A stretch of 64,000 bases of DNA from a bacterium (GTDB lineage Bacteria; Patescibacteriota; Minisyncoccia; UBA6257; 2-01-FULL-56-20): positions 65,123-129,122 of the forward strand of contig DAIDAM010000002.1 of NCBI GenBank assembly GCA_027310625.1, read 5' to 3'. The notes under the pieces are model-generated. The model made no database searches and was not told the origin of the DNA. It saw nothing but the letters and a program-made list of their open reading frames with translations. The translations under genes and the position numbers were made by a program. Shown here in pieces: positions 12,692 to 58,417 of the stretch (the stretch's first letter is position 1; each line of letters opens with the position of its first letter).

Positions 12692-12835
12692 GGTATACCC
12701 CGTAGGAAACGATGAGAAAACATTAAATTTTGAATCAAAACTAAACTTGTATTAATATGGAAATAGTCCCGGAACTTAAACGCCCTTTCTGATATTTGCG
12801 GAAAATATTTAATTTCCTACGGGGTATAAACTTAT
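12692..12835. repeat. Palindromic element of about 145 bp with 17-nt terminal inverted repeats GGTATACCCCGTAGGAAA / TTTCCTACGGGGTATAAAC
   Basis: Direct reading of both strands; lies just upstream of a second element and the pheS start. Confidence 0.5.
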
Positions 12836-12844
12836 TTCAATGAA

Positions 12845-12964
12845 TCCCGTTAGAGACAATAAGCAAATGCTTTTCATGAATAACTTTCAATTCCCCAAAA
12901 TGGTCGTTTTGCCGCATGCGGCGGGCGCTACGGTTGTCTAAAGACAACCTGTCTCTAACGGGAT
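12845..12964. mobile_element. MITE-like element, CCCGTTAGA family copy 1, ending at the pheS start codon
   Basis: ATCCCGTTAGAGACA...TGTCTCTAACGGGAT termini, with the pheS ATG (12963) immediately after CGGG. Same termini as the copies at 34501-34624 and 45899-45978. Confidence 0.6.
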
Positions 12965-14728: not shown

Positions 14729-16795
14729 ATGAAGTTCTCATACTCATTGATTAAAAAGTTGTCGCCGCGGCTGCCGAATATTTCCAAAGCGGCAGAAACG
14801 CTCAACCTTTACTCGTTTGAAGTTGAAGACGCGGCGGGCGATTTGTTGGACATCGCTCTGCCGGCGAACAGATACTCCGACGCCGCTTCGCATCTCGGAA
14901 TCGCGCGCGAACTTTCGGCGGCGCTCGGAAAGCCGCTCAAAAATCCCGTAAAGCTCATCGTCAATCCGCCGAGCGACCAAGGATTGATCGAGGTGGAGGT
15001 GGAAAATAAAGCCGCCTGTCCGCGGTATGCCGCGCGTGTTTTTGAAATCAAAAAAATGCCGGCGACTCCGTTGTGGATGAAAAATGTTTTGAAAACCTGC
15101 GGCGTAAAATCAATAAACGGCGTCGTCGACCTGATGAATTACGTGATGCTTGAAGTCGGACAGCCGCTCCACGCTTTCGATTTCGATAAAATCGCGGACA
15201 AACGCGGACGGCACGCGGATAAACGCGGAAAGTTTCAGCGTAATTCAGCGTTAAGTCAGCATAAGTCAGCGTCAATTATTGTGAGGAAAGCCAAAAAAGG
15301 CGAGCGAATCGAGACGCTCGATGGCCAACGTCTCGAACTCGATGCGAATGACATTGTTATCGCCGACGCTTCGCGCGCCATTGCAATCGCCGGCGCAAAA
15401 GGCGGAGCGAATTCCGGCGTCGACGGGAAGACGAGGCGGATAGTCGTGGAGGCGGCGAATTTCGACCCCGTGAGGATTTTCAAAACCTCGCGGCGGCTGA
15501 AGCTCGCGACAGACGCGAGCATAAGGTTCTCGCACGGCTTGAGTCCCGCGCTCGTCGATTTCGGAATGGACAGGGTAACGGAGCTTCTCAAAAAATCCGG
15601 CGCGAAACTTGTTGATTCCGTTGATGTTTACCCGCGGCGCGCAGGCGACGAAATTATAGAGTTTGACGCGGAGAAGTACGAAAATTTCATCGGTGCCGCC
15701 GTTTCACCGGCAAAAGCGAAGAAAATTTTTGCGAGATTGTCTTTCGCCGTTGTGAAGGCACGTACCAACGCGGATAAAAAATCAGCATCAATCAGTAGAA
15801 ATCAGCATAAATCAGCGTTCTTAGTCAGAGTTCCCGCCTGGAGGACGGACATTGAAAATCCGGAGGACTTGATGGAAGAAATCGCGCGGTTCGTCGGCTA
15901 CAACAAGCTGAAACCGCAGGCGCCCGCCATTTCTCTCAAGCCGGCGGAAGAAGAAGACATAGTCGTTTTCAAAGACAGAATGAGAAAATTTTTGTCGGGC
16001 GCCGGACTGAACGAGGTTTACAACCATTCTTTTTCTGCCGAAGGCGGAAGCGCGGCAGTGGAACTTGAAAATCCGATAAGCTCCGAGTTTAAAAATCTCC
16101 GCCAGTCGCTTGCGGGCGGATTGATTAAGAATGTAAAAGACAACGGCAGATTCTTTGACGAAGTGAGAATTTTTGAAATCGGAAAAGTTTTCAAAAAAAC
16201 GAAGAGCGGCGTCGGCGAAAAATTGAATCTCGGCGTCGCCATCGGCGCGAGAAAAAAGTCGTTTATCCGCGAAGTCAAAGGCATCGTTGACGATTTGCTC
16301 AAGGGTCTCGGCGTCGCCGATTTTTACATGGCGGAATCGGGAGCGGGAAATCTTCAAATAGAAATTGATAAAAAAATAATCGGAAACATAAAAATTGTGG
16401 ATGTCGGAAAAGGCCTGCCCGCCGGCAGGCAGGGGTGGGTTGCGACCGTAGGCGAAATGAATCTTGACGCGATTCTGCCGATTGTTGAAGAAGAGCGAGC
16501 TTTCAAGCCGCTGCCGAAATATCCGGCGGTGATGCGCGACGTTTCCATTCTTCTTCCCGCGGACGTAAGAATCGGAAGAGTTCTTGAGGTTATTGACGGC
16601 GCTTCGTCGGAAATCGCGGAGAACGTTGATTTGGTTGACGAGTATGTTGACAAGAAGTTCGACGGGAAACAGAGTTTAACATTCAGAATTATTTTCCAAT
16701 CGGAGGAAAGAACGCTCACGGACGCGGAAGTGAATCGCGATCTTTCGAAAATAATCGCGGCGCTCAAAAAATCTTTCAAGGCGGAAATCAGATAA
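14729..16795 (+). CDS. pheT: Phenylalanine--tRNA ligase beta subunit (short form)
   Basis: Position directly after pheS; tRNA-binding N-terminus, B3/4 and B5 regions, C-terminal FDGKQSLTFRIIFQSEERTLTDAEVN. Two in-frame palindromic mini-element inserts. Confidence 0.85.
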   Translation: MKFSYSLIKKLSPRLPNISKAAETLNLYSFEVEDAAGDLLDIALPANRYSDAASHLGIARELSAALGKPLKNPVKLIVNPPSDQGLIEVEVENKAACPRYAARVFEIKKMPATPLWMKNVLKTCGVKSINGVVDLMNYVMLEVGQPLHAFDFDKIADKRGRHADKRGKFQRNSALSQHKSASIIVRKAKKGERIETLDGQRLELDANDIVIADASRAIAIAGAKGGANSGVDGKTRRIVVEAANFDPVRIFKTSRRLKLATDASIRFSHGLSPALVDFGMDRVTELLKKSGAKLVDSVDVYPRRAGDEIIEFDAEKYENFIGAAVSPAKAKKIFARLSFAVVKARTNADKKSASISRNQHKSAFLVRVPAWRTDIENPEDLMEEIARFVGYNKLKPQAPAISLKPAEEEDIVVFKDRMRKFLSGAGLNEVYNHSFSAEGGSAAVELENPISSEFKNLRQSLAGGLIKNVKDNGRFFDEVRIFEIGKVFKKTKSGVGEKLNLGVAIGARKKSFIREVKGIVDDLLKGLGVADFYMAESGAGNLQIEIDKKIIGNIKIVDVGKGLPAGRQGWVATVGEMNLDAILPIVEEERAFKPLPKYPAVMRDVSILLPADVRIGRVLEVIDGASSEIAENVDLVDEYVDKKFDGKQSLTFRIIFQSEERTLTDAEVNRDLSKIIAALKKSFKAEIR
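15198..15277 (+). repeat. Palindromic mini-element copy (ACGCGGA arm + TCAGCGT arm) in frame in pheT
   Basis: gacaaacgcggacggcacgcggataaacgcggaaag + tttcagcgtaattcagcgttaagtcagcataagtcagcgtcaatt, translated ADKRGRHADKRGKFQRNSALSQHKSASI. Confidence 0.6.
15762..15838 (+). repeat. Second mini-element copy (ATCAGCA/ATCAGCG heptamer tract) in frame in pheT
   Basis: aaaaatcagcatcaatcagtagaaatcagcataaatcagcgttcttagtcag, translated KKSASISRNQHKSAFLV. Confidence 0.55.
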
Positions 16796-17233: not shown

Positions 17234-18868
17234 ATGCGATTCATCATTCCCGAAGAAATATCGGACATTTCAAAAAAGCTCAAGAAAGCCGGTTTCAAGG
17301 TGTACCTCGTCGGCGGGTGCGTTCGCGACCTTTTGACGAACGTAGTGCCGCCCCTTCGGGGCGAGCCTCGCCCTGACGGGCGGGAACCGAAGGACTGGGA
17401 CATAGCGACGGACGCGAAGCCGGATGAGGTGCAGAAAATTTTTCCCGACAGCGTCTACGAAAACGAATTCGGCACCGTTTTGGTGAAACTAAAACCGCTG
17501 ACCGGCGCAGATTTACCCGCCAAAGTTTCCGAAGGAAATTCAGGCGGGCAGGCGCAGAAAAACGCAGACACGTTTCCGCGTCAATCCGCGTCAAGTCCGC
17601 GTCAGTCCGCGCTGAATGTGGTGGAAATCACCACGTTCCGTTCCGAGGGAAAGTACACCGACAAGCGCCATCCCGACGAAGTGAGATTCGCGGAAACGAT
17701 TGAAGAGGATTTGTCGCGCCGCGATTTCACGATCAACGCCATCGCCCTCAACATCGGCGGCGTCGCGCAAAAACTGGTTGACCCGTTCAACGGGCAGGAA
17801 GATTTGAAAAAAGGAATTGTCCGCGCCGTCGGTAATGCCGAAGAAAGATTCAACGAAGACGCATTACGCCTTATCAGAGCGGTACGCTTCGCTTCCGAGC
17901 TTGGATTTTCCGCCGGAGGCGGACCGGTCTCGGGCTGGCAGATTGAGTTCAACACCAGACGCGCGATAGAAAAGTTCGCCGGGCTTTTGGAAGCGATAGC
18001 GAAGGAAAGGATACGCGACGAATTTACGAAGATAATAATGTCCGACGGAGCGGCGGGAGGAATTATTCTTCTTGAAGAGCTCGATTTGCTCCGCTACGTT
18101 TTGCCGGAACTTCGCGAGGGCATCGGCGTCGGCCAAAACAAACATCACATTTACACCGTTTTCGAGCACAACGTGAAATCTTTGGATTACTCGGCGAAGA
18201 AAAATTATTCCCTCGAAGTTCGTCTCGCATCCCTGCTTCACGACCTCGGCAAACCGAAAGCAAAAAGAGGCGAAGGACCGGACTGCACTTTCTACGGACA
18301 CGAAGTCGTCGGCGCCAAAATGGCCGTGAGAGCTTTAGAACGTTTGCGTTTTTCGAAAGACGTAATTGAAAAAGTAGTCCATCTCGTCCGCTACCACATG
18401 TTTTACTACAACGTCGGCGAGGTGAGTGAAGCGGGAGTGCGTCGTTTTATCGCCCGCGTCGGTCCGGAAACCGTTCCGGATTTATTGAAACTTCGCGAAG
18501 CGGACCGCATCGGCTCCGGCGTGCCGAAAGCCGTCCCTTACAAAATGCGCCACCTTCTTTTCATGATTGAAAAGGTTAAAAACGACCCCGTTTCGCCGAA
18601 GATGCTCAAAGTGAAAGGCGACGACGTGATGAAAATTCTCGGAATCGAGCCAGGCCCGCGCGTCGGCTACATACTTTCCGCGCTTCTTGAAGAAGTTCTT
18701 GACGACCCTTCCAAAAACGATTCGCCGCATCTTGAAAGGCGCGTCCGCGAGCTCGGAAAATTGAGCGATTCCGAACTGAACGGAATTTCAAAAAAGGCGA
18801 AAGAAAAAAAGGATGAATTCCAAGCGGGAATTGAAGAAGAAATGAAAAAAAAGTATTATGTCCGCTAA
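17234..18868 (+). CDS. cca: CCA tRNA nucleotidyltransferase / poly(A) polymerase family with HD domain
   Basis: YLVGGCVRDLL head motif and HD domain (LLHDLGK, HE...RYHM). Carries an in-frame insert of about 35 aa ending TFPRQSASSPRQSAL from a mini-element. Confidence 0.85.
   Translation: MRFIIPEEISDISKKLKKAGFKVYLVGGCVRDLLTNVVPPLRGEPRPDGREPKDWDIATDAKPDEVQKIFPDSVYENEFGTVLVKLKPLTGADLPAKVSEGNSGGQAQKNADTFPRQSASSPRQSALNVVEITTFRSEGKYTDKRHPDEVRFAETIEEDLSRRDFTINAIALNIGGVAQKLVDPFNGQEDLKKGIVRAVGNAEERFNEDALRLIRAVRFASELGFSAGGGPVSGWQIEFNTRRAIEKFAGLLEAIAKERIRDEFTKIIMSDGAAGGIILLEELDLLRYVLPELREGIGVGQNKHHIYTVFEHNVKSLDYSAKKNYSLEVRLASLLHDLGKPKAKRGEGPDCTFYGHEVVGAKMAVRALERLRFSKDVIEKVVHLVRYHMFYYNVGEVSEAGVRRFIARVGPETVPDLLKLREADRIGSGVPKAVPYKMRHLLFMIEKVKNDPVSPKMLKVKGDDVMKILGIEPGPRVGYILSALLEEVLDDPSKNDSPHLERRVRELGKLSDSELNGISKKAKEKKDEFQAGIEEEMKKKYYVR
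17552..17611 (+). repeat. Palindromic mini-element copy in frame in cca
   Basis: ggcgcagaaaaacgcagacacg + tttccgcgtcaatccgcgtcaagtccgcgtcagtccgcg. Confidence 0.6.
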
Positions 18869-23143: not shown

Positions 23144-23178
23144 GCAAAACGTCCGCCCAAGGCGGACGTTTTGTTTTT
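23144..23178 (+). terminator. Terminator hairpin gcaaaacgtccgcc-caa-ggcggacgttttg, copy 1
   Basis: 12-bp stem, 3-nt loop, followed by gtttttct. Identical 30-nt copy at 23711-23740. Confidence 0.6.
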
Positions 23179-23679: not shown

Positions 23680-23710
23680 TTCGGCGGCGTGAAATTTATC
23701 GCAAAACGTC

Positions 23711-23741
23711 CGCCCAAGGCGGACGTTTTGCTTGTGGAAAA
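23711..23741 (+). terminator. Terminator hairpin copy 2, identical to 23144-23173
   Basis: gcaaaacgtccgcccaaggcggacgttttg repeated verbatim after the toxin-antitoxin pair. Confidence 0.55.
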
Positions 23742-25672: not shown

Positions 25673-25827
25673 AAATGAGCATGCATTAAGGGCTAATGGT
25701 GGATGCCTAGACATCAAAAGGCGACGAAGGACGCGGCGTAGCTGCGATAAGCTTCGGTGAGGTGCGTAGCAACCGATGACCCGGAGATTTCCGAATGGAG
25801 CAATCCAACACAGTAAACCTGTGTTGT

Positions 25828-25969
25828 CGTGCCTCACTATCGTTCGGCACTATTGCTATCGCGCGAATGGGCGAATTATTACGAACATACGAATTATTAA
25901 ACTGATTCGTAAGTTCGTATCCTATTCGTAAATTCGTGCGATAGAAGTGGCGAGCGGCAGCGAGGCACG
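25828..25969. repeat. 23S palindromic insertion, family A copy 1 (CGCGCGAATnnGCGAAT...TTACGAAC.TACGAAT...TTCGTAAATTCGTGCGATAGAAGTGGCGAGCGGCAGCGAGGCAC)
   Basis: Flanked by complementary GTGCCTCAC...GCGAGGCAC; interrupts conserved 23S sequence before GAAACATCTCAGTA. Confidence 0.6.
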
Positions 25970-26049
25970 ACGCAAACCCGCTGAAGTGAAACATCTCAGT
26001 AAGCGGAGAAAAAGAGAACAATCAAGTCCTCTGTTTCACATATCCCATC

Positions 26050-26235
26050 AATTTGACAGAGCGAATCTTGAGACAGATTCGCGGCGCGAGGAGCGCAGTG
26101 TGCCGGTAGGCACATAAGCGACGAGCAACAAAGAAGCTGGCCAAGATTCGCCTGCCCGAAAGGGAAACGAAAAATTGGCCGATTTCTGTGTTGCTCCTCG
26201 TCGACGTAGCTTTGGCTACAATCTCCTCGTTGCGC
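26050..26235. repeat. 23S insertion, family C copy 1 (GATTCGCGGCGCGAGGAGCGCAGTGT...ATAAGCGACGAGCAACAAA...GTTGCTCCTC)
   Basis: Second copy at 30650-30900. Confidence 0.5.
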
Positions 26236-26341
26236 CTTGAAGTCGTCTCATTCTTTCGCTTTCAAATTTGACGGTATATGTGAAATAGAGGACGTTATTC
26301 CCTCAGTAGCGGCGAGCGAAAAGGGAAGAGCCGAAACTAAT

Positions 26342-26475
26342 CGTGCCTCACCGCCGTTCAGCACTCCATCGCGCGAATAGCCGAATTTTTACGAACGTAC
26401 GAATGAAACCAATTCGTATGTTCGCGCCGATTCGTAAATTCGTGCGATAGAAGTGGCGAGCGGCAGCGAGGCACG
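26342..26475. repeat. 23S family A copy 2
   Basis: cgtgcctcaccgccg...ttcgtaaattcgtgcgatagaagtggcgagcggcagcgaggcacg. Confidence 0.6.
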
Positions 26476-26507
26476 ATTGGGGTAACAAGAGAGAAACGCT
26501 CTTAAAG

Positions 26508-26580
26508 TGTCACGTGTCATGGGTCATGTGTCAGGATTTTTCTTGATACTTGATACTTGACACCTGATACTTTGAGGTGG
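26508..26580. repeat. Tandem heptamer tract in the 23S (GTGTCAC/GTGTCAT/GGGTCAT/GTGTCAG then CTTGATA x3)
   Basis: Direct reading. Confidence 0.5.
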
Positions 26581-26813
26581 AGAAGTTACAAAATTTTTGC
26601 CTAGCTGAATCTGCTGGAAAGCAGAACCAAAGACGGTGAAAGTCCGGTAGGCGAAAGGCAAAAATCTTCTTAGTTTCCCGGCGCACATAATTTATGTGCG
26701 CAGCCGAGCACAAAACTTGTTTTGTGCTCTGGTTTATCTTCAGTACTTCGAGGCAAAAAAACTTCGAAGGAATTAGCGAGTACTATCTCGCAAGGCTAAA
26801 TACTTTTGATGAT

Positions 26814-26850
<37 letters not shown>

Positions 26851-26904
26851 CAGGCCGGTGAGGCCGTTGAAATAGAACCTGAAACCATTTGCCTACAAGG
26901 ATTC

Positions 26905-27033
26905 GGAGCTCTCCGCTATCGCTTTGAGCTCCTCTATCGCGCGAATATGCGAATTCTTACGAATGTACGAATTCGTAAATTCGTATTTTTTTCGTAATTC
27001 GTGCGATGGGGAACTCCGAGCGGTAGCGAGGAG
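26905..27033. repeat. 23S family A copy 3
   Basis: ctatcgcgcgaatatgcgaattcttacgaatgtacgaattcgtaaattcg...ttcgtgcgatgggg. Confidence 0.55.
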
Positions 27034-27140
27034 TGACGAAGTGCCTATTGAAGAATGAGCCAACGACTTATGGTGCATTGCTTGTGTAAGTACCTTTAAG
27101 GGATGTACGCGCAGGGAGACCGAGTCTTAATAGGGCGTAT

Positions 27141-27266
27141 CGTGTCTCACTATTGTTCGACACGTTATCGCGCGAATAAGCGAATAATTACGAACTTACG
27201 AATTCGTATATTCGCAACCGATTTGTAAATTCGTGCGATAGAAGTGGCGAGCGGCAGCGAGGCACG
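27141..27266. repeat. 23S family A copy 4
   Basis: cgtgtctcactattg...gcgcgaataagcgaataattacgaacttacgaattcg...ttcgtgcgatagaagtggcgagcggcagcgaggcacg. Confidence 0.6.
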
Positions 27267-27607
27267 AAAAGCAGTGCATCATAGACCCGAAGCCGGATGA
27301 GCTTGCCTTGGCCAGGTTGAATTTCGCAGAAATGCGGGAGGAGGACCGAACTGGTGGGTTGTTCAAAACCCTCGGATGAGCTGAGGCAAGGAGTGAAAAG
27401 CTAATCGAATTCGGTAATAGCTGGTTCTCTCCGAAATAGTTTTAGGACTAGCGGTGAAAGTTACCTGTGGGGGTAGAGCTACTGGATGATTCGTAAAGGC
27501 CGAAAGGCCGGCGAATCAATCAAACTCCGAATACCGCAGGCCATATTTCACTAGTCAGACTGTGGGGGCTAAGCTCCATGGTCAAAAGGGAAACAGCCCA
27601 ACGCTCA

Positions 27608-27720
27608 ACTTCGTTTCGCTTCATCGCGCGAACAAGCGAATTTTACGAATGTACGAATCTGTATTCGTAAGTTCGTAATTTATTCGTAAATTCGTGCGAT
27701 GGATGCGAGCGGAAACGAGC
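27608..27720. repeat. 23S family A copy 5
   Basis: catcgcgcgaacaagcgaattttacgaatgtacgaatctgtattcgtaagttcgtaatttattcgtaaattcgtgcgatgg. Confidence 0.55.
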
Positions 27721-27954
27721 ATCAGATCATCATCTAAGGCCCCTAAATGCGCGCTAAGTGTTAAAGGCAGTCGTAATCCATAGACAGATAGGAGGTTGGC
27801 TTAGAGGTAGCCATCCTTTAAAGAGTGTGTAACAACTCACTATTCGACTCGCCTCGCTTCGCGAGAGCGAAGCTGGGTGGGACCGCGGCGCCGAAAATGT
27901 ACCGGGGCTAAGCGCGCTGCCGAAGATATGAATCGTTCGCTTCGCTCACTGTTG

Positions 27955-28040
27955 CAATCCGAACAATCCGAATTCCATCCGAATGTTCCGAATATTCGGG
28001 GCATTCGGATGCATTCGTAGGTTCGGATTGCGGTAGCGAG
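27955..28040. repeat. Family B copy 2 inside the 23S
   Basis: caatccgaacaatccgaattccatccgaatgttccgaatattcggggcattcggatgcattcgtaggttcggattgcgg. Confidence 0.55.
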
Positions 28041-28587
28041 CGGAGCGAGCGGTGGTAGGAGAGCATTCCCGTTGCGCCGAAGGAAGATCCGCGAGGACTT
28101 CTGGAGCGGCGGGAAGAGAGAATGTTGGCATGAGTAACCACAATCCTAATGAGAAATTGGGACCCCGAAAATCCAAGGTTTCCGTGGCACTGGCAATCAA
28201 CCACGGGTTAGTCGGCCCTAAGGCGATGGCGAAAGCCGCAGCCGATGGACAGACGGTTAATATTCCGTCACTCCCGCAGTTTTCAATGGAGGGACGAGAT
28301 TCAGTAGATGGAGCGCCTTATTGGTTTGGCGTCCTTGCGCGAGGATTCCCGGCTGGAAAATCCGTCGGGATGCGTTCAATCGCAAATCCCAGCAAAAAGG
28401 CAACTCCGATGTTTTCATTGGGGGAGTTCGTCGAGCGGATCTCCAAGAAAAACTTCTAAGGTTAAAATTGCGGAATCCGTACCGTAAACCGACACTGGTG
28501 GATAGGGCGAGAAGCCCAAGGGGAACGAGTGATTCGCCGTTAAGGAACTCGGCAAAAAAGCGGCCGTAAGTTAGCGATAAGGCCTGC

Positions 28588-28660
28588 CTTGTTCGGATGT
28601 CGGACTTCGGACGTCAGATTTCGGATAATCTGGCATCTGATTTCTGAAATCCGATATCTG
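28588..28660. repeat. Palindromic TCGGATG/TCAGATT heptamer tract in the 23S
   Basis: ttcggatgtcggacttcggacgtcagatttcggataatctggcatctgatttctgaaatccgatatctgaac; the two halves are reverse complements. Confidence 0.5.
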
Positions 28661-29290
28661 AACTAGGCCGCAGCGAAAGTTTTCCTGGCGACTGTTTACC
28701 AAAAACACAGCTCCCTGCGAACTCGCAAGAGGATGTATAGGGGGTGACGCCTGACCGATGCGAGAAGGTCAAGACTGCCTGTCGCATCTCACTAAGGTGA
28801 GATGCTCTGATATTCATTGAAATTAGTTCGCCGAAGGCGAACGAAAATTAATAGAAATTATTGGTGATAAATTTCGCGAGCGAAGCGAGCAAATTTCTAT
28901 AAATTTCAGCGAAGCGAATATCAAAAGCACCGAACTTTAGTGAGGTGCGGCGGAGTGGTTCAAGCCCTCGTCAATGTCAGCAATAACTATAATTGTTCTA
29001 AGGTAGCGCAGTTCCTTTCCGGGTAAGTTCCGGAGCGCACGAATGGCGTAACGACTGGGAAACTGTCTCGACGGCGAGCTCGGTGAAAATGCGATTCCCG
29101 TGAAGACGCGGGATACCTGCAGCGGGACGGAAAGACCCCGGAAGCTTTACTGCAGCTTGGTATTGGCTTTAAGGTCTTGATGCGTAGCGTAGTGGGGAGG
29201 GTTTGAAGCTCCGATTTCGGTCGGAGTGGACCCGACAATGAAACACCCATCTTTAGGACTTTAAATTCTAACCATACCAGAACCCCTCTT

Positions 29291-29390
29291 TGCGCATAAG
29301 CGCAAAGCGCAGAAGGACGCAGAATGAACGCGGACTAACGCAGAATTTTTTTCAGCGTGGGTCTGCGTAAAGTCAGCGTGAGTCAGCGCT
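29291..29390 (+). repeat. Composite palindromic mini-element (ACGCAGA arm + TCAGCGT arm) in the 23S, copy a
   Basis: gcgcagaaggacgcagaatgaacgcggactaacgcagaa + tttttttcagcgtgggtctgcgtaaagtcagcgtgagtcagcgc, closed by cctctttg ... caaagagg. Confidence 0.6.
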
Positions 29391-29630
29391 TTGTTTACTC
29401 GTGAACAAAGAGGGGAAGCTGGTGAGGGACAGTGCTTGGCGGGCAGTTTCAATGGGGCGTTGTCCTCCTAAAGAGTAACGGAGGAGTCTATTAAGGTCGG
29501 CTTGGCCCGGATGGAAACCGGGCTGGACGCGTAAAGGCAGAAGCCGGCTTAACTGCAAGACCTACAAGTCGCGCAGATGCGAAAGCAGAGCTTAGTGACC
29601 CGACCACTATGTCAGTGCTTCGCACTGACC

Positions 29631-29708
29631 GCAGAATAACGCGGAACGAACGCAGAACTACGCAGAACTTTCAGCGTAAGTCAGCGTCAAGTCCGCGTGA
29701 GTCCGCGG
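29631..29708 (+). repeat. Composite palindromic mini-element in the 23S, copy b
   Basis: cgcagaataacgcggaacgaacgcagaactacgcagaac + tttcagcgtaagtcagcgtcaagtccgcgtgagtccgcgg. The right arm is near-identical to the lepA and cca copies. Confidence 0.65.
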
Positions 29709-29917
29709 CCAATGCGGAGCATTGGCTCTTCATAGAAAGGTGGGAGACACCGGATAAAAGCTACTCCGGGGATAACAGGCTGGTGAGATCCGAGAGTCCC
29801 TATCGACGATCTCGCTCGGCACCTCGATGTCGGCTCATCCTAGCGCGGGGCTGGAGAAGGTCCCAAGCGTTTGGCTGTTCGCCAATTAAAAGGATACGTG
29901 AGCTGGGTTCAGACCGT

Positions 29918-30585
29918 CAAAATAACTGAACCGAGGACATCAAGCACGGCGGCTCGTCGCCGCAAGGCGACCCGAATAAATCGACTCATATCGGTGGAGT
30001 CCTAGCACGGCAACCTGTCATATGCTAGGATAATACCGAGGGAAGTTGCATATGTTGAATCTTTCGTCAACGCAAAAAGCATATTTAGCGGGATTTCTAG
30101 ACGGCGATGGGAGTATCTACGTGCGGCTGAAACCAAATACCGATTACAAGTATGGTTTTCAGGTTGCACCGTACGTTATTCTTTTCCAATCGTCCAAAGA
30201 ACGTAAGAAATTTGAAAAGGTTTGTTCCTTAATTGGTCTCGGATACATTCGAGAAAGAAAGGATAGAATTTTGGAATACACCATCGGCAGGGAAAAAGCA
30301 ATCAAGTTTTTTCTTAAAATGGTGATTCCGTATCTGATTCTAAAAAAGAAGCAAGCAATTCTTACGTTGGAAATCCTGGATATGAAAATGAAAATCAAAA
30401 ACAAGAACGATTTTCAGGCGTTGATGAATAAGATAGATATTTTTCGTAATCTGAATTATTCGAAAAAGCGTAAAAAGCATGTGTTAACCTCGTAGAGACT
30501 ACACGTCGATCCCGAGCACATAAAGCGTTGCGTGCTTCGGTGGTGGTATAGTCCGACACTCTTAGTAATAGGAGATTACAGTATG
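29918..30585 (+). mobile_element. Presumed group I intron in the 23S at the I-CreI-type site (between CGT and CGTGAGACAG), carrying a LAGLIDADG ORF
   Basis: Conserved exon sequence GGGTTCAGACCGT | ... | CGTGAGACAGGTCGGTCCC is reconstituted if 29918-30585 is removed; the insert ends in G and the 5' exon ends in T. Confidence 0.6.
30046..30495 (+). CDS. LAGLIDADG homing endonuclease, single-motif homodimeric type
   Basis: KAYLAGFLDGDGSIYV motif; 149 aa; AT-rich; located inside the rRNA insert. Confidence 0.85.
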   Translation: MHMLNLSSTQKAYLAGFLDGDGSIYVRLKPNTDYKYGFQVAPYVILFQSSKERKKFEKVCSLIGLGYIRERKDRILEYTIGREKAIKFFLKMVIPYLILKKKQAILTLEILDMKMKIKNKNDFQALMNKIDIFRNLNYSKKRKKHVLTS

Positions 30586-33421: not shown

Positions 33422-34501
33422 ATGCTTCAGAAATTGAGTTTTAAAGAAATCTTTCTTTCCAAGAACATTTTTTTACCGCTTTCGGTAGTTTTGCTTTTCA
33501 GTCTCGTCGTTTTGTCCAGCATATCGGAAGATCTTTTTTACAGACAGGCCTTATTTATAGCTCTCGGGTTCGTAATTGTTCTCACTTTCAGGAAGTTTGA
33601 TTTTCTGCCGGTTTTAAGACACAGATGGCTGATTACGGGCATTTATGCCGCATCAATATTTTTTCTGGTTTTGGTTCTTCTTATCGGCCCTGATATAAGA
33701 AATGTGAAAAGCTGGCTCGTTCTCGGGCCGATAGGATTCCAGCCGTCCGAAATTGCGAAGGTCGCCTTGATACTTGTTCTTTCTGATTACTTCAGCAGAA
33801 GGCATTTATCTGTCGCTCGCTGGAAAATAATATTTACATCGTTTCTTTTTTTTATCGTGCCCGCCGTTTTGGTTGCCGCCCAGCCGGCGCTCGGCTCCGC
33901 AGCCGTTCTTTTTGTAATTTGGTTTGGATTCCTTCTTTCAAGCGGCTTGCCGCGAAACAGAATACTTCTTTTTTCTGCCGCATTCGTCGTTTTCGGAATA
34001 CTCCTTTGGAACTGGGGATTGAAAGATTATCAAAAAGACAGGATAACCCATTTCTTTTACCCCGAGAAAAACGTTTTGGGGGCGAATTACAGCGTCGTTC
34101 AGTCAAAAGTGGCGATTGGCTCCGCCGGACTTTGGGGAGAGGGGTACAGACAGGGGTCGCAAACACAACTCGGCTTTCTCGCTGAGCCGACAAACGACTT
34201 TATTCTCGCCGCTTTGACGGAGGAGTGGGGGCTTGCGGGCGGACTTTTGACAATAGGAGCGTTTTTCATGCTCATGTTCGGGATAATGAAGACGGCTTCT
34301 GCGGCTGTAAGAAATTTTGACAAGTTCGTCTGTCTTGGGACCGTGATATCTTTGGGAACCCAGTTTTTCCTGAACAGCGGTTCAGCGCTCGGAATCGTTC
34401 CGGTCGTCGGGATACAATTTCCCTTTTTGAGTTACGGGGGTTCGAGTGTTTTGACTAACTTCTTTCTTATAGCTATCATCTCGTCCATTGGTAAAAAATG
34501 A
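33422..34501 (+). CDS. SEDS-family peptidoglycan polymerase (RodA/FtsW)
   Basis: PSEIAKVALILVLSDYFS, GSAGLWGEGY..GSQTQLGFLAEPTNDFILAA, FPFLSYGGSSVLTNF. Confidence 0.85.
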   Translation: MLQKLSFKEIFLSKNIFLPLSVVLLFSLVVLSSISEDLFYRQALFIALGFVIVLTFRKFDFLPVLRHRWLITGIYAASIFFLVLVLLIGPDIRNVKSWLVLGPIGFQPSEIAKVALILVLSDYFSRRHLSVARWKIIFTSFLFFIVPAVLVAAQPALGSAAVLFVIWFGFLLSSGLPRNRILLFSAAFVVFGILLWNWGLKDYQKDRITHFFYPEKNVLGANYSVVQSKVAIGSAGLWGEGYRQGSQTQLGFLAEPTNDFILAALTEEWGLAGGLLTIGAFFMLMFGIMKTASAAVRNFDKFVCLGTVISLGTQFFLNSGSALGIVPVVGIQFPFLSYGGSSVLTNFFLIAIISSIGKK

Positions 34502-34624
34502 TCCCGTTAGAAGCAACTAACCCTTTGTTTTCAGAAAATGCCCTACATTACAAACAAAAAAGCCGATTACAGCTCAAGACAGTTGAATTACGGTCGTCCG
34601 GAGACAACCTGCTTCTAACGGGAT
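34501..34624. mobile_element. MITE-like element, CCCGTTAGA family copy 2, exactly filling the rodA stop / mltG start junction with ATGAT duplicated on both sides
   Basis: aaaaATGAT|CCCGTTAGAAGCA...TGCTTCTAACGGG|ATGATttt. The left ATGA supplies the rodA TGA stop and the right ATGA supplies the mltG ATG. Confidence 0.65.
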
Positions 34625-35591
34625 GATTTTTATTGAGAATTTTTTAAGGAGCAAAATTGTCTTGTTCGTTATTTTAATATCTTTCCTTTTCATTTTTTTT
34701 CTTTTTTACGGTTTGAGCCCCGCCTCGGCGGAAAAAGGGCAGATTATTTTTGAAGTTTCGCGCGGCGAGGGTTTCTTCGACATAATGAATCGTTTGAAAA
34801 ACGAAAATCTCATACGTTCTCCTGCGGCTTTCACATTTTACTCGGTTATTTCGGGGTCGGCCCGGAAAATGAAGCCCGGTATTTACCAGCTTCGCGGCGA
34901 GATGAATGCATTTGAAATAGCGAATACTTTGAGTGATTCTCCTCAAGCAGTAAAGGTTGTAATACCCGACGGTGCGACCATTTACGAAATTGACGCAATA
35001 TTAAGCGAGAAAAAAATATTACCCCCGGGGTTTCTTGCCTCTTTCGAAGAAAAAAACGACATTGAAGGAAAACTTTTTCCGGACACTTACGAATTTTTTA
35101 AAAATTCATCAGTTGAGGACGTCGTTCAAAAATTCCTTGAAAATTTCTCGGAAAAAGCCGAACCAATTTTGAAAAAGGATTCCCTAAACTACAGAAGGAA
35201 TCTGATCATCGCGTCGCTCATACAAAAAGAAGTTCCCGACGGCGACGATGCAAGAGTCATATCGGGCATTCTTAGAAAACGCCTTTCCGCCGGAATGAAA
35301 CTGGATGTTGACGCGACAATTTGCTACATCAAGAAAATTTTGAAAGCGATAAGTTCCTGTTATCCCCTTAGCGACGACGATTTCAAAATTGATTCGCCCT
35401 ACAACACCTACCTTCATTCCGGGTTGCCTCCCGGCCCGATAGGGAATCCGAACGCCGCGATGATAAACGCCGCGGTTAACCCCCTATCTTCGCCTTATTG
35501 GTTTTATTTGAGCGACCCGAAAACGGAGAAGACGATTTTTGCAAAGACGCTTGACGAGCAGAACACGAACCGCGCAATTTATTTGCGGTAG
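34623..35591 (+). CDS. mltG: Endolytic murein transglycosylase MltG (YceG family)
   Basis: N-terminal TM helix; DSPYNTYLHSGLPPGPIGNPNAAMINAAVNP signature. Confidence 0.85.
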   Translation: MIFIENFLRSKIVLFVILISFLFIFFLFYGLSPASAEKGQIIFEVSRGEGFFDIMNRLKNENLIRSPAAFTFYSVISGSARKMKPGIYQLRGEMNAFEIANTLSDSPQAVKVVIPDGATIYEIDAILSEKKILPPGFLASFEEKNDIEGKLFPDTYEFFKNSSVEDVVQKFLENFSEKAEPILKKDSLNYRRNLIIASLIQKEVPDGDDARVISGILRKRLSAGMKLDVDATICYIKKILKAISSCYPLSDDDFKIDSPYNTYLHSGLPPGPIGNPNAAMINAAVNPLSSPYWFYLSDPKTEKTIFAKTLDEQNTNRAIYLR

Positions 35592-36355: not shown

Positions 36356-36389
36356 CCCCGCACCTTTTGTCGCGACAAAAGGTGCGGGG
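36356..36389 (+). terminator. Long hairpin ccccgcaccttttgtcg/cgacaaaaggtgcgggg ahead of rpoBC
   Basis: 17-bp perfect palindrome, immediately followed by TTGACA. Confidence 0.45.
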
Positions 36390-45604: not shown

Positions 45605-47638
45605 TTACAGCTTGTATACGAATATTGACGTGCCGACAATGAAGTTTGGTCCCGGCAGTTCCCCCATTCCTTTCTTTGGGGGTCGGAGCGAAGTGAGCCA
45701 GCGATACTCGTCTTCGGGGTTTCGCCTTTGTCCGGGAGCAAGCGGTTGTATGGCGCTCTGAAGCGTGTTAACCGAAACCGCGAGCCAGTATATCCCTTTT
45801 TCGGCAGGATTTCCTTTTGATGACGACCAGTCAATTTCTTTTTCTCCGAGAGAATATTTCGGATTCCCTCCGCCGAAGTAATCCACGGCGATTTTGTCTA
45901 TCCCGTTAGAAGTCGCGCTCCCCGACCGCAATCGGGGAGTCCCTTCGGGACCGCTGGCGCGGCTACTTCTAACGGGATCTATTTCTTTATAATTTTCAAC
46001 AAATTCTTTAAGCCGAATTAAATCCTGACCCCAGTCGTAATTGGAGTCAGTTACATATTTGTAACCGCCGTAAACACCTCCGCCGATTTCGTTGAAATAG
46101 GAGAGAAAATACGGCGCCGAAAAAGCGGCCTCGAGCGCAAACCAAAACACAATCACGAAAATTATTCCCGGCTTCAAAAAACGCTCCAGTTTTTCTCTTG
46201 CGCCGCCGATCCCGTTTTCGCCGTTAGCAAGAAGTTTTTTTATTGCGGCGACGGAAATAATGTAAACGAAAGGAAACGTTGGGAGAAGATGACGGACGCC
46301 TATATTCAGCGGACTTTTTACGCTGTACACCCAATAGAAAATGACAAAAACGAACATTGAAAAACCGGCGAAGTTTCTTCCGATGAAATCGAACAGCGAC
46401 TTCAGCGACTTTTTTATCCCGCCCGCGACGTTTTTTATGAACGCGAAGATGGCGAAGATTCCCGCCAAAAGAACGACTATCAGCGACGGCAAAGGTTCTT
46501 TAAGAAGATAGACGGTCGGGAAGTAAAGCGGCGAGCCGGCGGCGGAAACTTCGCCGAGAAAGTAAGCGGTGTTGCCTCCGGACGAACGCTGAAGAACCAT
46601 CAGAACGCCGAGAAGATATTCCGCAAACGGTTTTGTTATCGGATTTTTTGTCATCCAAATGTCGACGTCCGCAAGGCAGCGCACCGGCTTGCAGAGCTGT
46701 CCGGCCGGGGTCGGACCGCTCGCAAAAGAAGTGAGGATGAATTCCGTGTCGGTTGTTTGTTTTTGCGCCGGATAGTTGAGCGTGAAAAGAGCGTAGACGG
46801 GATAAACAATCGCGATGTAGCCGATTGCAAAAATTGCGATTGTCGACCGCAAGTAACGCCAGGCGCGAACGGAAAATCTTTTTATTCTCGAATCGTTTTC
46901 TGTTTTGTTCCAGTCGCGGACGACTGTCCATATAAAAAAGAGAATTATAAGAATCAGGAAATACGGAACGAGAAGCACCGTTGAGAATTTGGTGAGTTCT
47001 CCCACGCCGAAGCCTATGCCGGCAACGATGAGCCTGAAAACGGAAGGCGACAATAAAAATTTGACGAATAAGTAAGTCGCGAGAACTACGCCGAACGTCG
47101 CGCCGATATCGGTGGTTACGTAGTGTCCGTGGGCGAGTACGGTTGGTGATAATCCGAAAAATAGAGCGGGGAGAAGCGCCCACCATCTTCCGAGAATTTC
47201 CGCCGCCCAGACATAAACGAGAATTATCAAAAACAAAGTCAGCACCATCGGCAGGATTCTCGCGGAGCGGACGATATAATCGGCGTCATTCCCCGAACCG
47301 TAAAGGAAATCCGCGCCCACCGCCCATTGGCCGTTTACGTCTTTTCTCCAGGCGTCGTTGTCCGTCGGAAAATAAAGGTCGAGAAAGGTGAGCGGGAAAG
47401 CGGCAAGCACCTTCACGAGCGGCGGATGTTCGGGATTCAACCGGTAGTCGAGATTATTTAGATAACTGTAGCCGGCGGGGATGTGCGCGAGTTCGTCCAT
47501 AATCGCCGAGTCGCCGGAAGACGCCCAGAGCATCAATAGAAAAGCAGCAGCAACGATGCCGCCGAGAATTATAACCGGCAGAGACGAGCGATTGTCTAAA
47601 AATTCCTCACCCAATGGATTAAGGACATAATACCACAT
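45605..47638 (-). CDS. Membrane glycosyltransferase, GT39/ArnT-PMT-like
   Basis: N-terminal DE motif (AIMDELAHIPAGY), more than 10 TM helices and a C-terminal soluble domain. Contains the in-frame 80-bp CCCGTTAGA element, translated DPVRSSRASGPEGTPRLRSGSATSNGID. Confidence 0.6.
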   Translation of the reverse strand: MWYYVLNPLGEEFLDNRSSLPVIILGGIVAAAFLLMLWASSGDSAIMDELAHIPAGYSYLNNLDYRLNPEHPPLVKVLAAFPLTFLDLYFPTDNDAWRKDVNGQWAVGADFLYGSGNDADYIVRSARILPMVLTLFLIILVYVWAAEILGRWWALLPALFFGLSPTVLAHGHYVTTDIGATFGVVLATYLFVKFLLSPSVFRLIVAGIGFGVGELTKFSTVLLVPYFLILIILFFIWTVVRDWNKTENDSRIKRFSVRAWRYLRSTIAIFAIGYIAIVYPVYALFTLNYPAQKQTTDTEFILTSFASGPTPAGQLCKPVRCLADVDIWMTKNPITKPFAEYLLGVLMVLQRSSGGNTAYFLGEVSAAGSPLYFPTVYLLKEPLPSLIVVLLAGIFAIFAFIKNVAGGIKKSLKSLFDFIGRNFAGFSMFVFVIFYWVYSVKSPLNIGVRHLLPTFPFVYIISVAAIKKLLANGENGIGGAREKLERFLKPGIIFVIVFWFALEAAFSAPYFLSYFNEIGGGVYGGYKYVTDSNYDWGQDLIRLKEFVENYKEIDPVRSSRASGPEGTPRLRSGSATSNGIDKIAVDYFGGGNPKYSLGEKEIDWSSSKGNPAEKGIYWLAVSVNTLQSAIQPLAPGQRRNPEDEYRWLTSLRPPKKGMGELPGPNFIVGTSIFVYKL
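45899..45978. mobile_element. MITE-like element, CCCGTTAGA family copy 3, inserted in frame in the glycosyltransferase with a TCTAT flank duplication
   Basis: tgTCTAT|CCCGTTAGAAGTcgcgctccccgaccgcaatcggggagtcccttcgggaccgctggcgcggctACTTCTAACGGG|ATCTATttc. Confidence 0.6.
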
Positions 47639-49885: not shown

Positions 49886-51643
49886 ATGGCCACCACTCCT
49901 GTAGAAGCAATTAAAGAGCGGCTGGATATCGTTGATTTCATCAAGGGCTATCTTCAGCTCCAGCCGGCGGGGAAAAATTTCAAAGCGCTTTGTCCGTTCC
50001 ATCGCGAAAAAACCCCATCGTTTATGGTTTCGCCCGAACGCCAGAGCTGGCATTGCTTCGGCTGCGGCGCGGGCGGCGACATTTTTTCATTTCTCATGCG
50101 CTACGAGAACATCGAGTTCGGCGAAGCGCTGAAAATTCTCGCCGAAAAAGCGGGCATCGAACTTAGGCGCGTAAGCCCGGCGGAATACAAGCAGATAGGT
50201 CTTCTTTACGACATAAACGAAAAGGCGAAAGATTTTTTCAGAGGAGGAATGGAAAGTTCGAAAGTGGCGAGCGATTACATCTCCGGCCGCGGGCTCGAGA
50301 AAAACACGCTTGAAGAATTCGAAATCGGTTTTGCGCCGACGAACCCCGACGCGCTTCTTGTTTATCTCATCAATTCCGGTTTTCACCCCGACGACATTTT
50401 GCGCGCCGGACTTTCTTTCAAAACTGAAAGGGGACTGCAGATGGACAGATTCCGCGGCAGAATCATTTTCCCGATACACAACCATCTCGGAAAAATCGTC
50501 GGCTTCACCGGGAGGATTCTACCAACAACGCCGACCAACGCGGACGATACGCGGACCAGCGTAGAAAAATTTCAGCGTAGTTCAGCGTTTAGTCAGCGTG
50601 AATCAGCGATCCCTAAATACGTCAATTCGCCGGAGACGCCCGTCTTTTCGAAATCAAAAATTCTTTACGGACTTTTCAAAAGCAAAAACCATATCCGTGA
50701 GGCGAAAAACGCTCTCCTTGTCGAGGGGCAGATGGATTTCCTTGCAAGCTGGCAAGCGGGAATTAAAAACGTCGTCGCCAGTTCGGGAACGGCGCTGACC
50801 GCCGACCATCTCCGCGTTTTGCGTCGTCTTACCGACCAGCTTGTCGTCAGTTTTGACAACGACGATGCGGGGTTGGAGGCGGGCGAGCGTGCCATTGACC
50901 TTGCGGAAGCGAACGATTTCGGAGTGAAAGTCGCTCTTTTTCGTGATTACAAGGACCCCGCGGACGCCGCGATTTCCGACAAAAAATACTTTTTCGAAGT
51001 TATTGAGGGTGCCAAGCCGGCGGCGGAATTTTATTTCGAAAAATATTTGCCCGGAGGTGAATTCAGCGTCCGCAACCGCGACGATTTCAAAAATTTGAGA
51101 ATTGTCCTTGAAAAAATAGGGAATATCGGCAGCCCCGTTTTGAAATCTTTCTGGCTGAAGGAGTTGTCCAAAAGAGTTGGAGTGAATGAACTCACGCTCG
51201 CGGAAGAAATGGAAAGAAAAATTGTCGCGAAAAAAGACGAGCGCGAAGGAAACAATGACACGAATATAATCGCGAAAAAATTTTCCCGATGGGAAGTACT
51301 CTCGCAAAGGTGCCTCGCCTGGATTCTGCACAAGGAGGATTTTGAGAGTAAAGAATTTTTTCCCCATCTCCCCGGCGCTTATCGCGAAATTTTCTCAATT
51401 CTTGAAAGCGGCGGAAGACGCTCCGAAGATCCGCTTCTTGATGAACTGTTGAATCTCATTGTTTTCCAGCAAAGAGAGGCGAGCATGGAGGAATTTGAAG
51501 CGCTGAAGATGGAACTCTACAAGGAGTACGTGAAAGAAAGAAGGCGCGAGCTTGCGTCAATCATCGGCGGTGCGGAGCGTTCTGGAGACGACGAACTCCT
51601 CCGCAAAGCGATGCAGGAATTAGACAATTTGCCGGGTTTCTAG
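49886..51643 (+). CDS. dnaG: DNA primase
   Basis: Zinc finger CPFHREKTPSFMVSPERQSWHCFGCGAGGD, TOPRIM EGQMDFL...DNDDAG. Carries an in-frame mini-element insert TSVEKFQRSSAFSQRESA. Confidence 0.9.
   Translation: MATTPVEAIKERLDIVDFIKGYLQLQPAGKNFKALCPFHREKTPSFMVSPERQSWHCFGCGAGGDIFSFLMRYENIEFGEALKILAEKAGIELRRVSPAEYKQIGLLYDINEKAKDFFRGGMESSKVASDYISGRGLEKNTLEEFEIGFAPTNPDALLVYLINSGFHPDDILRAGLSFKTERGLQMDRFRGRIIFPIHNHLGKIVGFTGRILPTTPTNADDTRTSVEKFQRSSAFSQRESAIPKYVNSPETPVFSKSKILYGLFKSKNHIREAKNALLVEGQMDFLASWQAGIKNVVASSGTALTADHLRVLRRLTDQLVVSFDNDDAGLEAGERAIDLAEANDFGVKVALFRDYKDPADAAISDKKYFFEVIEGAKPAAEFYFEKYLPGGEFSVRNRDDFKNLRIVLEKIGNIGSPVLKSFWLKELSKRVGVNELTLAEEMERKIVAKKDEREGNNDTNIIAKKFSRWEVLSQRCLAWILHKEDFESKEFFPHLPGAYREIFSILESGGRRSEDPLLDELLNLIVFQQREASMEEFEALKMELYKEYVKERRRELASIIGGAERSGDDELLRKAMQELDNLPGF
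50527..50609 (+). repeat. Palindromic mini-element copy in frame in dnaG
   Basis: ccaacgcggacgatacgcggaccagcgtagaaaaa + tttcagcgtagttcagcgtttagtcagcgtgaatcagcg. Confidence 0.6.
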
Positions 51644-58315: not shown

Positions 58316-58417
58316 GTTTGACCCCCACACCAAACGACAATGTCGCCCGCTTGCCGGCGGACAGGCAGAATACAAACATCACTTAAAAAAGTTGTCGTTT
58401 GGTGCGGGGGTTTGACT
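58316..58417. mobile_element. MITE-like element: 19-nt inverted repeats CCCCCACACCAAACGACAA / TTGTCGTTTGGTGCGGGGG flanked by a TTTGAC direct repeat
   Basis: Direct reading; lies in the divergent region between the 57732-58262 gene and dprA. Confidence 0.45.

Follow-up and report, generated by a model that had tools for sequence, protein, structure and literature searches.

The 64,000-nucleotide stretch analysed here (the window), positions 65,123 to 129,122 of contig DAIDAM010000002.1 in the patescibacterial assembly GCA_027310625.1, carries on its minus strand, at 45605-47638, an intact open reading frame (ORF) of 677 amino acids for a GT39/PMT_2 membrane glycosyltransferase with a GT-C fold. 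Very probably, a 77-bp hairpin resembling a non-autonomous MITE (a miniature transposable element with inverted repeats) has inserted into a pair of Ile-Asp codons of this gene (A-TAGA-C). The element occupies 45901-45977, and its minus-strand translation makes up residues 554-580 of the protein. Since 77 bp of element and 4 bp of duplicated target add 81 bp, or 27 codons, the reading frame is kept. The ends of the element, TCCCGTTAGA...TCTAACGGGA, are common to at least 141 copies of a hairpin family that we describe below.

On the plus strand, positions 45897-45981 read TCTA-TCCCGTTAGAAGT-CGCGC-TCCCCGA-CCGCAA-TCGGGGA-GTCCC-TTC-GGGAC-CGCTG-GCGCG-GCT-ACTTCTAACGGGA-TCTA. The left (45901-45913, TCCCGTTAGAAGT) and right (45965-45977, ACTTCTAACGGGA) terminal inverted repeats match perfectly over 13 bp, of which ten bases are invariant in the family and three covary, and the GC-rich interior (45914-45964) is predicted by minimum free energy folds to form a 5-bp stem (CGCGC/GCGCG) around two hairpins (TCCCCGA-CCGCAA-TCGGGGA and GTCCC-TTC-GGGAC). 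The folding energy of the element is − 48.4 kcal/mol on the plus strand and − 49.9 kcal/mol on the minus strand (z = − 5.8 and − 6.5), and none of 200 shuffled sequences folded as well. An exhaustive scan for inverted repeats returned 14-nt arms at 45900-45978, which correspond to the 13-bp ends plus one flanking A/T pair. A preliminary description of this DNA had placed a palindromic segment at 45899-45978 within a 5-bp flank duplication, TCTAT; the segment is real and lies within one or two bases of that position, but its true bounds are 45901-45977, and the duplication is instead the 4-bp TCTA (TAGA on the gene strand) at 45897-45900 and 45978-45981. These boundaries follow from direct reading, from the 140 other family copies, which assign the T and the A to the element, and from the single TAGA at the empty site of an orthologue. 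The same description had treated the segment as one of several occurrences of the same palindromic element; ends of 10-13 bp are indeed common to three copies in the window (12845-12963, 34502-34623, and 45901-45977), but their interiors and lengths (119, 122, and 77 bp) are unrelated. The 9-mer CCCGWTAGA occurs six times in the window against 0.8 expected, and the six occurrences are both ends of these three copies.

The product of the ORF matches the Pfam families PMT (4e-12; 46.6 bits against a cut-off of 22.7) and PMT_2 (5e-11; 43.4 bits against 26.1), and 3537 homologues were detected, chiefly from Patescibacteria and chiefly about 650 residues long. An AlphaFold2 model built with 120 sequences as input has a mean predicted local distance difference test score (pLDDT) of 89.1 and a predicted template modelling score of 0.91, and Foldseek searches with this model returned a probability of 1.0 to Pmt4, Pmt1-Pmt2, ArnT, and OST, i.e., the GT-C fold. 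As had been proposed, the minus-strand ORF stays open through the element: 81 bp are added, no stop codon is introduced, and the translation runs EI-DPVRSSRASGPEGTPRLRSGSATSNGI-DKIAV. In alignment, the window protein retains every residue that is invariant in the family.

Comparison with homologues of 54-68% identity, in alignments of 31 and 119 sequences, identifies the segment as an insert, in agreement with the earlier expectation for residues 554-581. In the 32-sequence alignment, 29 of the 31 homologues have a clean 27-column gap, exactly at residues 554-580, between ...EI and DKIAV...; among the 120 listed sequences (the query and 119 homologues), 96 have the short form of the segment, and the 27-residue insert is absent from approximately 116 of the 119 homologues. 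The closest orthologue (P0002, 67-68% identity) provides the empty site in its DNA, where CCT GAA ATA GAC AAA ATA contains TAGA once, and the filled site in the window reads GAA A(TAGA) T-CCCG...CGGG-A (TAGA) C AAA ATC.

The second expectation of the preliminary description, that the C-terminal soluble domain takes up the insert in a loop, was supported by the model. The ten-residue blocks spanning 551-580 have pLDDT values of 58, 53, and 58, with residues 570-575 below 50, and the blocks on either side (541-550 and 581-590) both score 94. The last long helix of the model ends at about residue 507, N-terminal to the insert, which is located between a helix (540-549) and a strand (583-586) in the C-terminal soluble domain. 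The product would bear 27 extra hydrophilic residues in a modelled disordered surface loop, and a candidate loop-derived peptide, SSRASGPEGTPR, can be read from the translation of the element. Several GT39 orthologues have a natural 12-residue loop with a C-x-C (Cys) motif at the insert position, and in another (P0118, locus L126) the same loop holds four units of a 7-nt microsatellite (AATGGCG), read in frame as NGEWRMANGE; this natural variation in length indicates that the position tolerates extra residues. Given the position of the loop, the natural length variation, and the invariant residues, the loop-bearing enzyme is probably functional.

The same site has been struck in two further orthologues. 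At the identical position, P0005 (locus L001) carries a 32-bp minimal version of the element, TCCCGATAGAGGC-CGCTCT-GCCTCTAACGGGA, between TAAA and TAGA, and P0009 (locus L002, approximately 4660-4730) carries at the same TAGA a 65-bp element with a different type of end, CCCGCACAC...GTGTGGGGG, flanked by TAGA on both sides. The interiors of the three inserts are unrelated. In a neighbour-joining tree, which is weakly resolved for P0001 versus P0005, the three insert-bearing proteins are not sisters and each has closer relatives without an insert (for P0009, its nearest relatives at 75-77% identity), so that independent insertions are the more economical reading; common ancestry of the three is disfavoured by these insert-free closer relatives and by the tree, poorly resolved as it is. 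A metagenome scan for the junction of TCTAACGGGA with Ile-Asp-Lys-Ile-Ala found no further GT39 case, its matches being two unrelated intergenic copies in which a TTGA duplication stands by chance before CAAAATAGC. Hairpins of the type inserted at the TAGA of P0009, with ends CCCC(C/G)CAC...GTG(C/G)GGGG and a 4-bp T..A duplication, also occur in the window at 58321-58411 (TTGA) and 36356-36389.

To delimit the family, one genome per species (GTDB) was scanned with the pattern TCCCGTTAGAR-N40-70-YTCTAACGGGA, which admits interiors of 40-70 nt. At least 119 stretches were found in these species-representative genomes, and the 141 copies analysed represent over 140 unrelated loci and over 100 independently assembled genomes. 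Most of the stretches belong to Patescibacteria, in many of its classes, where the hosts include Saccharibacteria, Nomura-, Kerfeld-, Yanofsky-, Kaiser-, Lipton-, Levy-, and Doudnabacteria, and Kazan; outside it, copies were found in some bins labelled Planctomycetota, Omnitrophota, WOR-3, and Stahlbacteria, and in a few labelled Gammaproteobacteria or Bdellovibrionales, for which mis-binning is possible. Lengths range from 62 to 92 bp, as bounded by the scan, in addition to the 119- and 122-bp copies of the window. Viral contigs yielded only two family matches, and matches in plasmid and phage collections were at chance level (E >= 0.2).

An exact 4-bp duplication lies outside the T...A ends in 94 of the 141 copies (67%, against a chance expectation of about 1/256) and a 3-bp duplication in another 11. 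The commonest duplications are TGAA (23), TTCA (20), TTGA (11), TCCA (8), and CTCA (6), and TTAA is never present among the 105. With A at position − 5 in 83 copies and T at + 5 in 71, the target consensus is palindromic, (A)TNNA(T). The 77-bp element has most of the traits by which a MITE is defined: it is short (below about 300 bp), has no coding capacity of its own, and has terminal inverted repeats, a fixed-length duplication, and copies dispersed over unrelated loci; for the remaining trait, an autonomous relative with identical ends as the source of the transposase, no candidate was found in the window or in approximately 850 kb of flanks.

Stem positions 1-10 are fixed by the scan, and positions 11-13 are free or restricted to R/Y only. 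Sixteen different triplets occur at positions 11-13, and copies on a single contig can differ, as do the three of the window (GAC, AGC, and AGT). These positions are paired in 135, 137, and 128 of the 141 copies, where shuffles give 87, 65, and 59; pairing at position 14 is no more frequent than chance (43 versus 42), and the terminal stem is exactly 13 bp long in 86 copies. Pairing at positions 11-13 despite varied triplets, together with its loss at position 14, indicates that the stem is exactly 13 bp and that pairing counts beyond sequence. Some interiors are AT-rich and unstructured, and others, at the opposite end of the range, are GC-rich. Among the latter is a subfamily of 13 copies from different genomes that includes the GT39 copy; its members have in common an inner 5-bp stem and two hairpins, and the hairpins differ in sequence and keep their pairing; the 12 other members include loci L023, L051, L077, L024, L030, L038, and L107, and two more GC-rich subfamilies share the double-hairpin design. 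The inner hairpins were judged by single-sequence folds, as RNAalifold on a MAFFT alignment, in which the inner hairpins were misaligned, gave the outer stem only.

Six loci (L020, L041, L079, L098, L110, and L033) hold nested or tandem copies with a second TCCCGTTAGA or TCTAACGGGA motif within the element, which suggests that elements insert into each other or that solo ends recombine. The space between TCCCGTTAGA and TCTAACGGGA at locus L108 (2731-2821) is exactly filled by a tRNA-Thr(TGT) gene (2739-2811, minus strand), whose acceptor stem prolongs the terminal stem, and the flanks CTTA/CTGG form no clear duplication; the tRNA may be captured cargo, or the stem may be an RNA-processing feature.

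Approximately 10% of copies (15 of 141) are read through within ORFs that extend for 50 codons or more to either side of the element, and nearly all of these copies use the frame T CCC GTT AGA ... TCT AAC GGG A, which encodes PVR...SNG. In the remaining two phases the ends carry a TAG or a TAA, which leaves one insertion phase in three open. The Pfam scan covered the genes of the window; the hosts of the read-through copies we take, from the translations of those hosts, to be RsmH, GatB, UvrC, PepA, PurD, MetG, and Dus, along with what are presumably a GT2, an iron alcohol dehydrogenase, and a DUF711 protein. Fourteen of the 15 belong to the GC-rich class, in which the length plus 4 is divisible by three in 64% of copies, compared with 23% of AT-rich copies.

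Most copies stand at gene starts. An ATG is formed by the terminal A and a flanking TG at 101 of 286 ends, 87 of which open an ORF of at least 80 codons, whereas 20% of all ATG trinucleotides of this DNA do so; since 87 of 143 elements supply, in their terminal A (T on the other strand), the first base of such an ORF, the share of elements adjoining a gene start is about 61%. Two of the three family copies in the window are of this type. The last base of the 119-bp copy at 12845-12963 (flanks TGAA/TGGA) is the A of the pheS ATG, and the 122-bp copy at 34502-34623 separates the stop codon of ftsW/rodA (TGA, 34499-34501) from the start codon of yceG/mltG (ATG, 34623-34625), which formerly overlapped as ATGA. 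A 135-bp element at 12694-12828, with 16-bp ends TATACCCCGTAGGAAA/TTTCCTACGGGGTATA, stands 16 bp upstream of the copy at 12845, so that two hairpin elements are stacked before pheS. At the start-codon copies found across loci L003-L121 and at those ending at 12963 and 34623 in the window, the native ribosome-binding site is displaced 60-120 nt upstream, and the genes behind them may initiate by bridging of the hairpin or by coupling to read-through that ends at the TAA or TGA beside the ATG. The simplest reading of this pattern of survival is a target preference combined with a strong survival filter in genomes with almost no spare DNA.

In the mechanism that we propose, a DDE-type transposase acting in trans would move the element, for which the 13-bp terminal stem would be needed, by making a staggered 4-bp cut at TAGA that is then filled in, a signature read from the duplication of TAGA. 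The hairpin itself, as single strand or as RNA, may also be required for movement. The ends read as ..PVR / SNG.. in the sole stop-free phase, and the GC-rich interior adds no stop; the open phase, the stop-free interior, and the 81-bp total together keep the GT39 gene open. Copies of the family last almost only where they are harmless, namely at start codons, at ATGA overlaps where the terminal A rebuilds the ATG, and in permissive loops in frame, and the GT39 copy would persist because its site is among the few tolerant places of the protein. The element is probably without a host function in the GT39 gene.

Several points weigh against this account. Searches of the window and of approximately 850 kb of flanks turned up neither an autonomous element nor a transposase with these ends; unpaired ends had no long-range partner up to 3.5 kb away and represented degenerate short elements only; and no transposase-like ORF recurred among 757 clustered flank ORFs of at least 180 residues, the recurring families being, as we presume from reading their sequences, housekeeping genes only. 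Within one genome the interiors are unrelated, as would be unusual in MITEs that derive by amplification from a master copy. The covariation at positions 11-13 and in the inner hairpins points to a structural requirement, of a single strand or an RNA, that a plain model of a transposase binding terminal inverted repeats leaves unexplained. The conservation of stem positions 1-10 is partly a matter of ascertainment, as all 141 copies were chosen for perfect ends of 10-11 nt. Relatives more than 68% identical, by which the insertion could be dated, are unavailable, and it is from sequence that we infer both the activity of the loop-bearing enzyme and the persistence of the 81 nt through mRNA to protein.

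A bolder and distinctly less probable interpretation, which we offer tentatively, is that hairpins with TCCCGTTAGA ends constitute a distinct cross-phylum class of mobile hairpins whose ends evolved for compatibility with translation and whose mobilising enzyme recognises a single strand in its folded form, in place of a classical transposase that binds terminal inverted repeats. When an element hits a start codon, its terminal T/A rebuilds the ATG (CAT on the other strand), and the PVR...SNG phase is present in either orientation, the other two phases ending in TAG/TAA or in a TGA that overlaps the rebuilt ATG. A ribosome reading through from the former start codon would then produce an in-frame fusion or else stop right at the new one, which would allow translational coupling. 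A further observation behind this interpretation is that the 13-bp stem (10 fixed plus 3 covarying positions) is the sole requirement, the interior being free.

It is unlikely that the element has been co-opted, its RNA hairpin (about − 47 kcal/mol within the ORF) or its peptide loop having acquired a role, for instance in mRNA processing or stability, in translational pausing for membrane insertion, or as a surface epitope on an extracytoplasmic domain. Such a role would accord with the maintenance of the inner hairpins by compensatory changes in 13 copies from different genomes, with a terminal stem held at exactly 13 bp, and with inserts at this site in three GT39 orthologues. The compensatory changes, however, lie between copies in different genes, and thus reflect the needs of the element itself and not a role in GT39; moreover, approximately 116 of 119 orthologues manage without the insert, the peptide is of low complexity and modelled as disordered, and the three GT39 inserts have unrelated interiors.

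Less probable still is removal of the element after transcription, as an intron or processing stem comparable to the excised insertions of rRNA genes in the candidate phyla radiation (CPR), by which the protein would lack the loop and the transcript would join GAAATAGA directly to CAAAATC. The 23S rRNA gene of the window, about 1.4 kb longer than the model, and the tRNA-Thr gene of L108, whose acceptor stem continues the terminal stem between the family ends, are compatible with such processing. Against it, the only phase with no stop at either end is the one used by nearly all copies in long ORFs, and GC-rich copies are enriched for frame-preserving lengths (64%), features that are expected only if the copies are translated. 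Rfam returned no family at the gathering threshold over the whole window and none even at E <= 10 on 45850-46030. Bacteria are not known to have an mRNA splicing system for such hairpins. That the segment is a native lineage-specific loop of GT39, at a position whose length does vary in the family (the 12-residue Cys-loop and the one 7-nt microsatellite insert), or an assembly artefact has almost no probability and is effectively refuted by the perfect 13-bp inverted ends and 4-bp duplication in the DNA and by the recurrence of the same ends in over 100 independently assembled genomes, at over 140 unrelated loci.

Among the described systems closest to the family are Rickettsia palindromic elements (RPEs), of which it is the nearest parallel so far outside Rickettsia. 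RPEs are approximately 100-150 bp long, have conserved interiors and peptides, are not known to have clear terminal inverted repeats or duplications, and are known only from Rickettsia; in the present family, by contrast, only the 13-bp ends are common, a duplication of 4 bp is usual, start codons hold the majority of copies, and the hosts cross phyla. According to the published account (Ogata et al. 2000, as summarised in PMC10969869), RPEs are short palindromic elements inserted in frame in unrelated essential genes at the surfaces of proteins, and the two have in common in-frame palindromes in unrelated housekeeping genes, translation, tolerance at the surface, and small-genome, host-dependent bacteria as hosts. 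The RPE trait of in-frame read-through in unrelated genes was found for the GT39 copy and 14 others, and we do not claim membership: the GT39 copy is an RPE-like in-frame MITE of a new family, which departs from the published description of RPEs (RPE-1 to RPE-10) in its host phylum, its conserved ends, and its duplication.

In classical bacterial MITEs the interiors are conserved, the duplication is mostly TA, and a parent insertion sequence (IS) is known or suspected. The present family, which resembles them in being non-coding and shorter than 150 bp with terminal inverted repeats, a target duplication, and many copies, differs in interiors that are unrelated even in one genome, in its 4-bp TNNA duplication, in the covariation of three inner stem positions, and in that the searches yielded no parent IS. 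Classical MITEs (Correia/NEMIS, ERIC, RUP) often lie beside genes, with occasional in-frame fusions (PMC10969869). A lead, and only a lead, is the resemblance to IS1380/piggyBac in CCC-type ends and a 4-bp T..A duplication. Ends of the IS1380 family start with CC and are accompanied by duplications of 4-5 bp. The ends of piggyBac, of which IS1380 is the prokaryotic relative, start with CCC (motifs CCCTT and CCCTC) and its 4-bp duplication is TTAA (PMC10813416). The present elements differ from both in the T before CCC(G), in never using TTAA, and in that no such transposase was found near any copy. REP/REPIN sequences are, like these elements, short, numerous, extragenic hairpin repeats in which structure is conserved over sequence. 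REPINs are mobilised by RAYT (Y1 HUH) transposases, are associated with a RAYT gene, and are not known to produce target duplications; against identity with them stand the 4-bp duplication in 67% of copies and the failure to find a recurrent neighbouring gene in approximately 850 kb of flanks. Integron attC sites are likewise imperfect palindromes (57-141 bp) with short end motifs (RYYYAAC ... GTTRRRY) and variable interiors that are recognised as folded single strands, and the motifs GTTAGAR and YTCTAAC resemble attC core sites; the reversed order GTTAGAR...YTCTAAC on both strands, the duplications, and the location outside cassette arrays rule out this identity as well. A literature search of incomplete coverage found no paper on these end motifs, on MITEs of CPR, Patescibacteria, or Saccharibacteria, or on RPEs in Patescibacteria; the hairpin family is apparently undescribed, and an earlier description is possible as the libraries consulted are incomplete.

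Patescibacteria have tiny, tightly packed genomes that are usually called poor in mobile DNA, and here a family of 60-120-bp hairpins is spread over many CPR classes and other phyla. The family would account for a share of the odd low-complexity inserts in CPR proteins, which bears on annotation, on alignments for phylogeny, and on structure prediction, and its copies would constitute a natural map of insertion-tolerant loops, one of which, in GT39, was apparently struck three times independently. It also raises the question of which enzyme moves elements whose only defining features are a 13-bp stem and a 4-bp TNNA duplication. The GT39 copy alone is a tidy and unsurprising example, and the family behind it is the more interesting result.

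Other repeats in the window are of separate kinds. The preliminary description had likened the GT39 copy to mini-elements in lepA (4174-4253), pheT (15193-15271), cca (17553-17611), and dnaG (50529-50608); these are also in frame in their four housekeeping genes, but belong to a different palindromic family, (A)CGCGGAnnn then TCCGCGTnnn, composed of three or four 10-nt-periodic units followed by inverse units. CGCGGA/TCCGCG palindromes also lie inside the 23S rRNA gene (29308-29388 and 29630-29707), which at 25676-30030 is 4355 bp long compared with a model of 2925 nt, with approximately 1.4 kb inserted; its part at 25830-27730 is full of degenerate repeats (families D1-D9; CGAATTnnTACGAAC..., GTGCGATAGAAGTGGCGAGCGGCAGCGAGGCACGA). 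Lastly, two identical 30-nt GC-rich hairpins (GCAAAACGTCCGCCCAAGGCGGACGTTTTG) at 23144-23173 and 23701-23731, 528 bp apart and terminator-like, bracket a short region.

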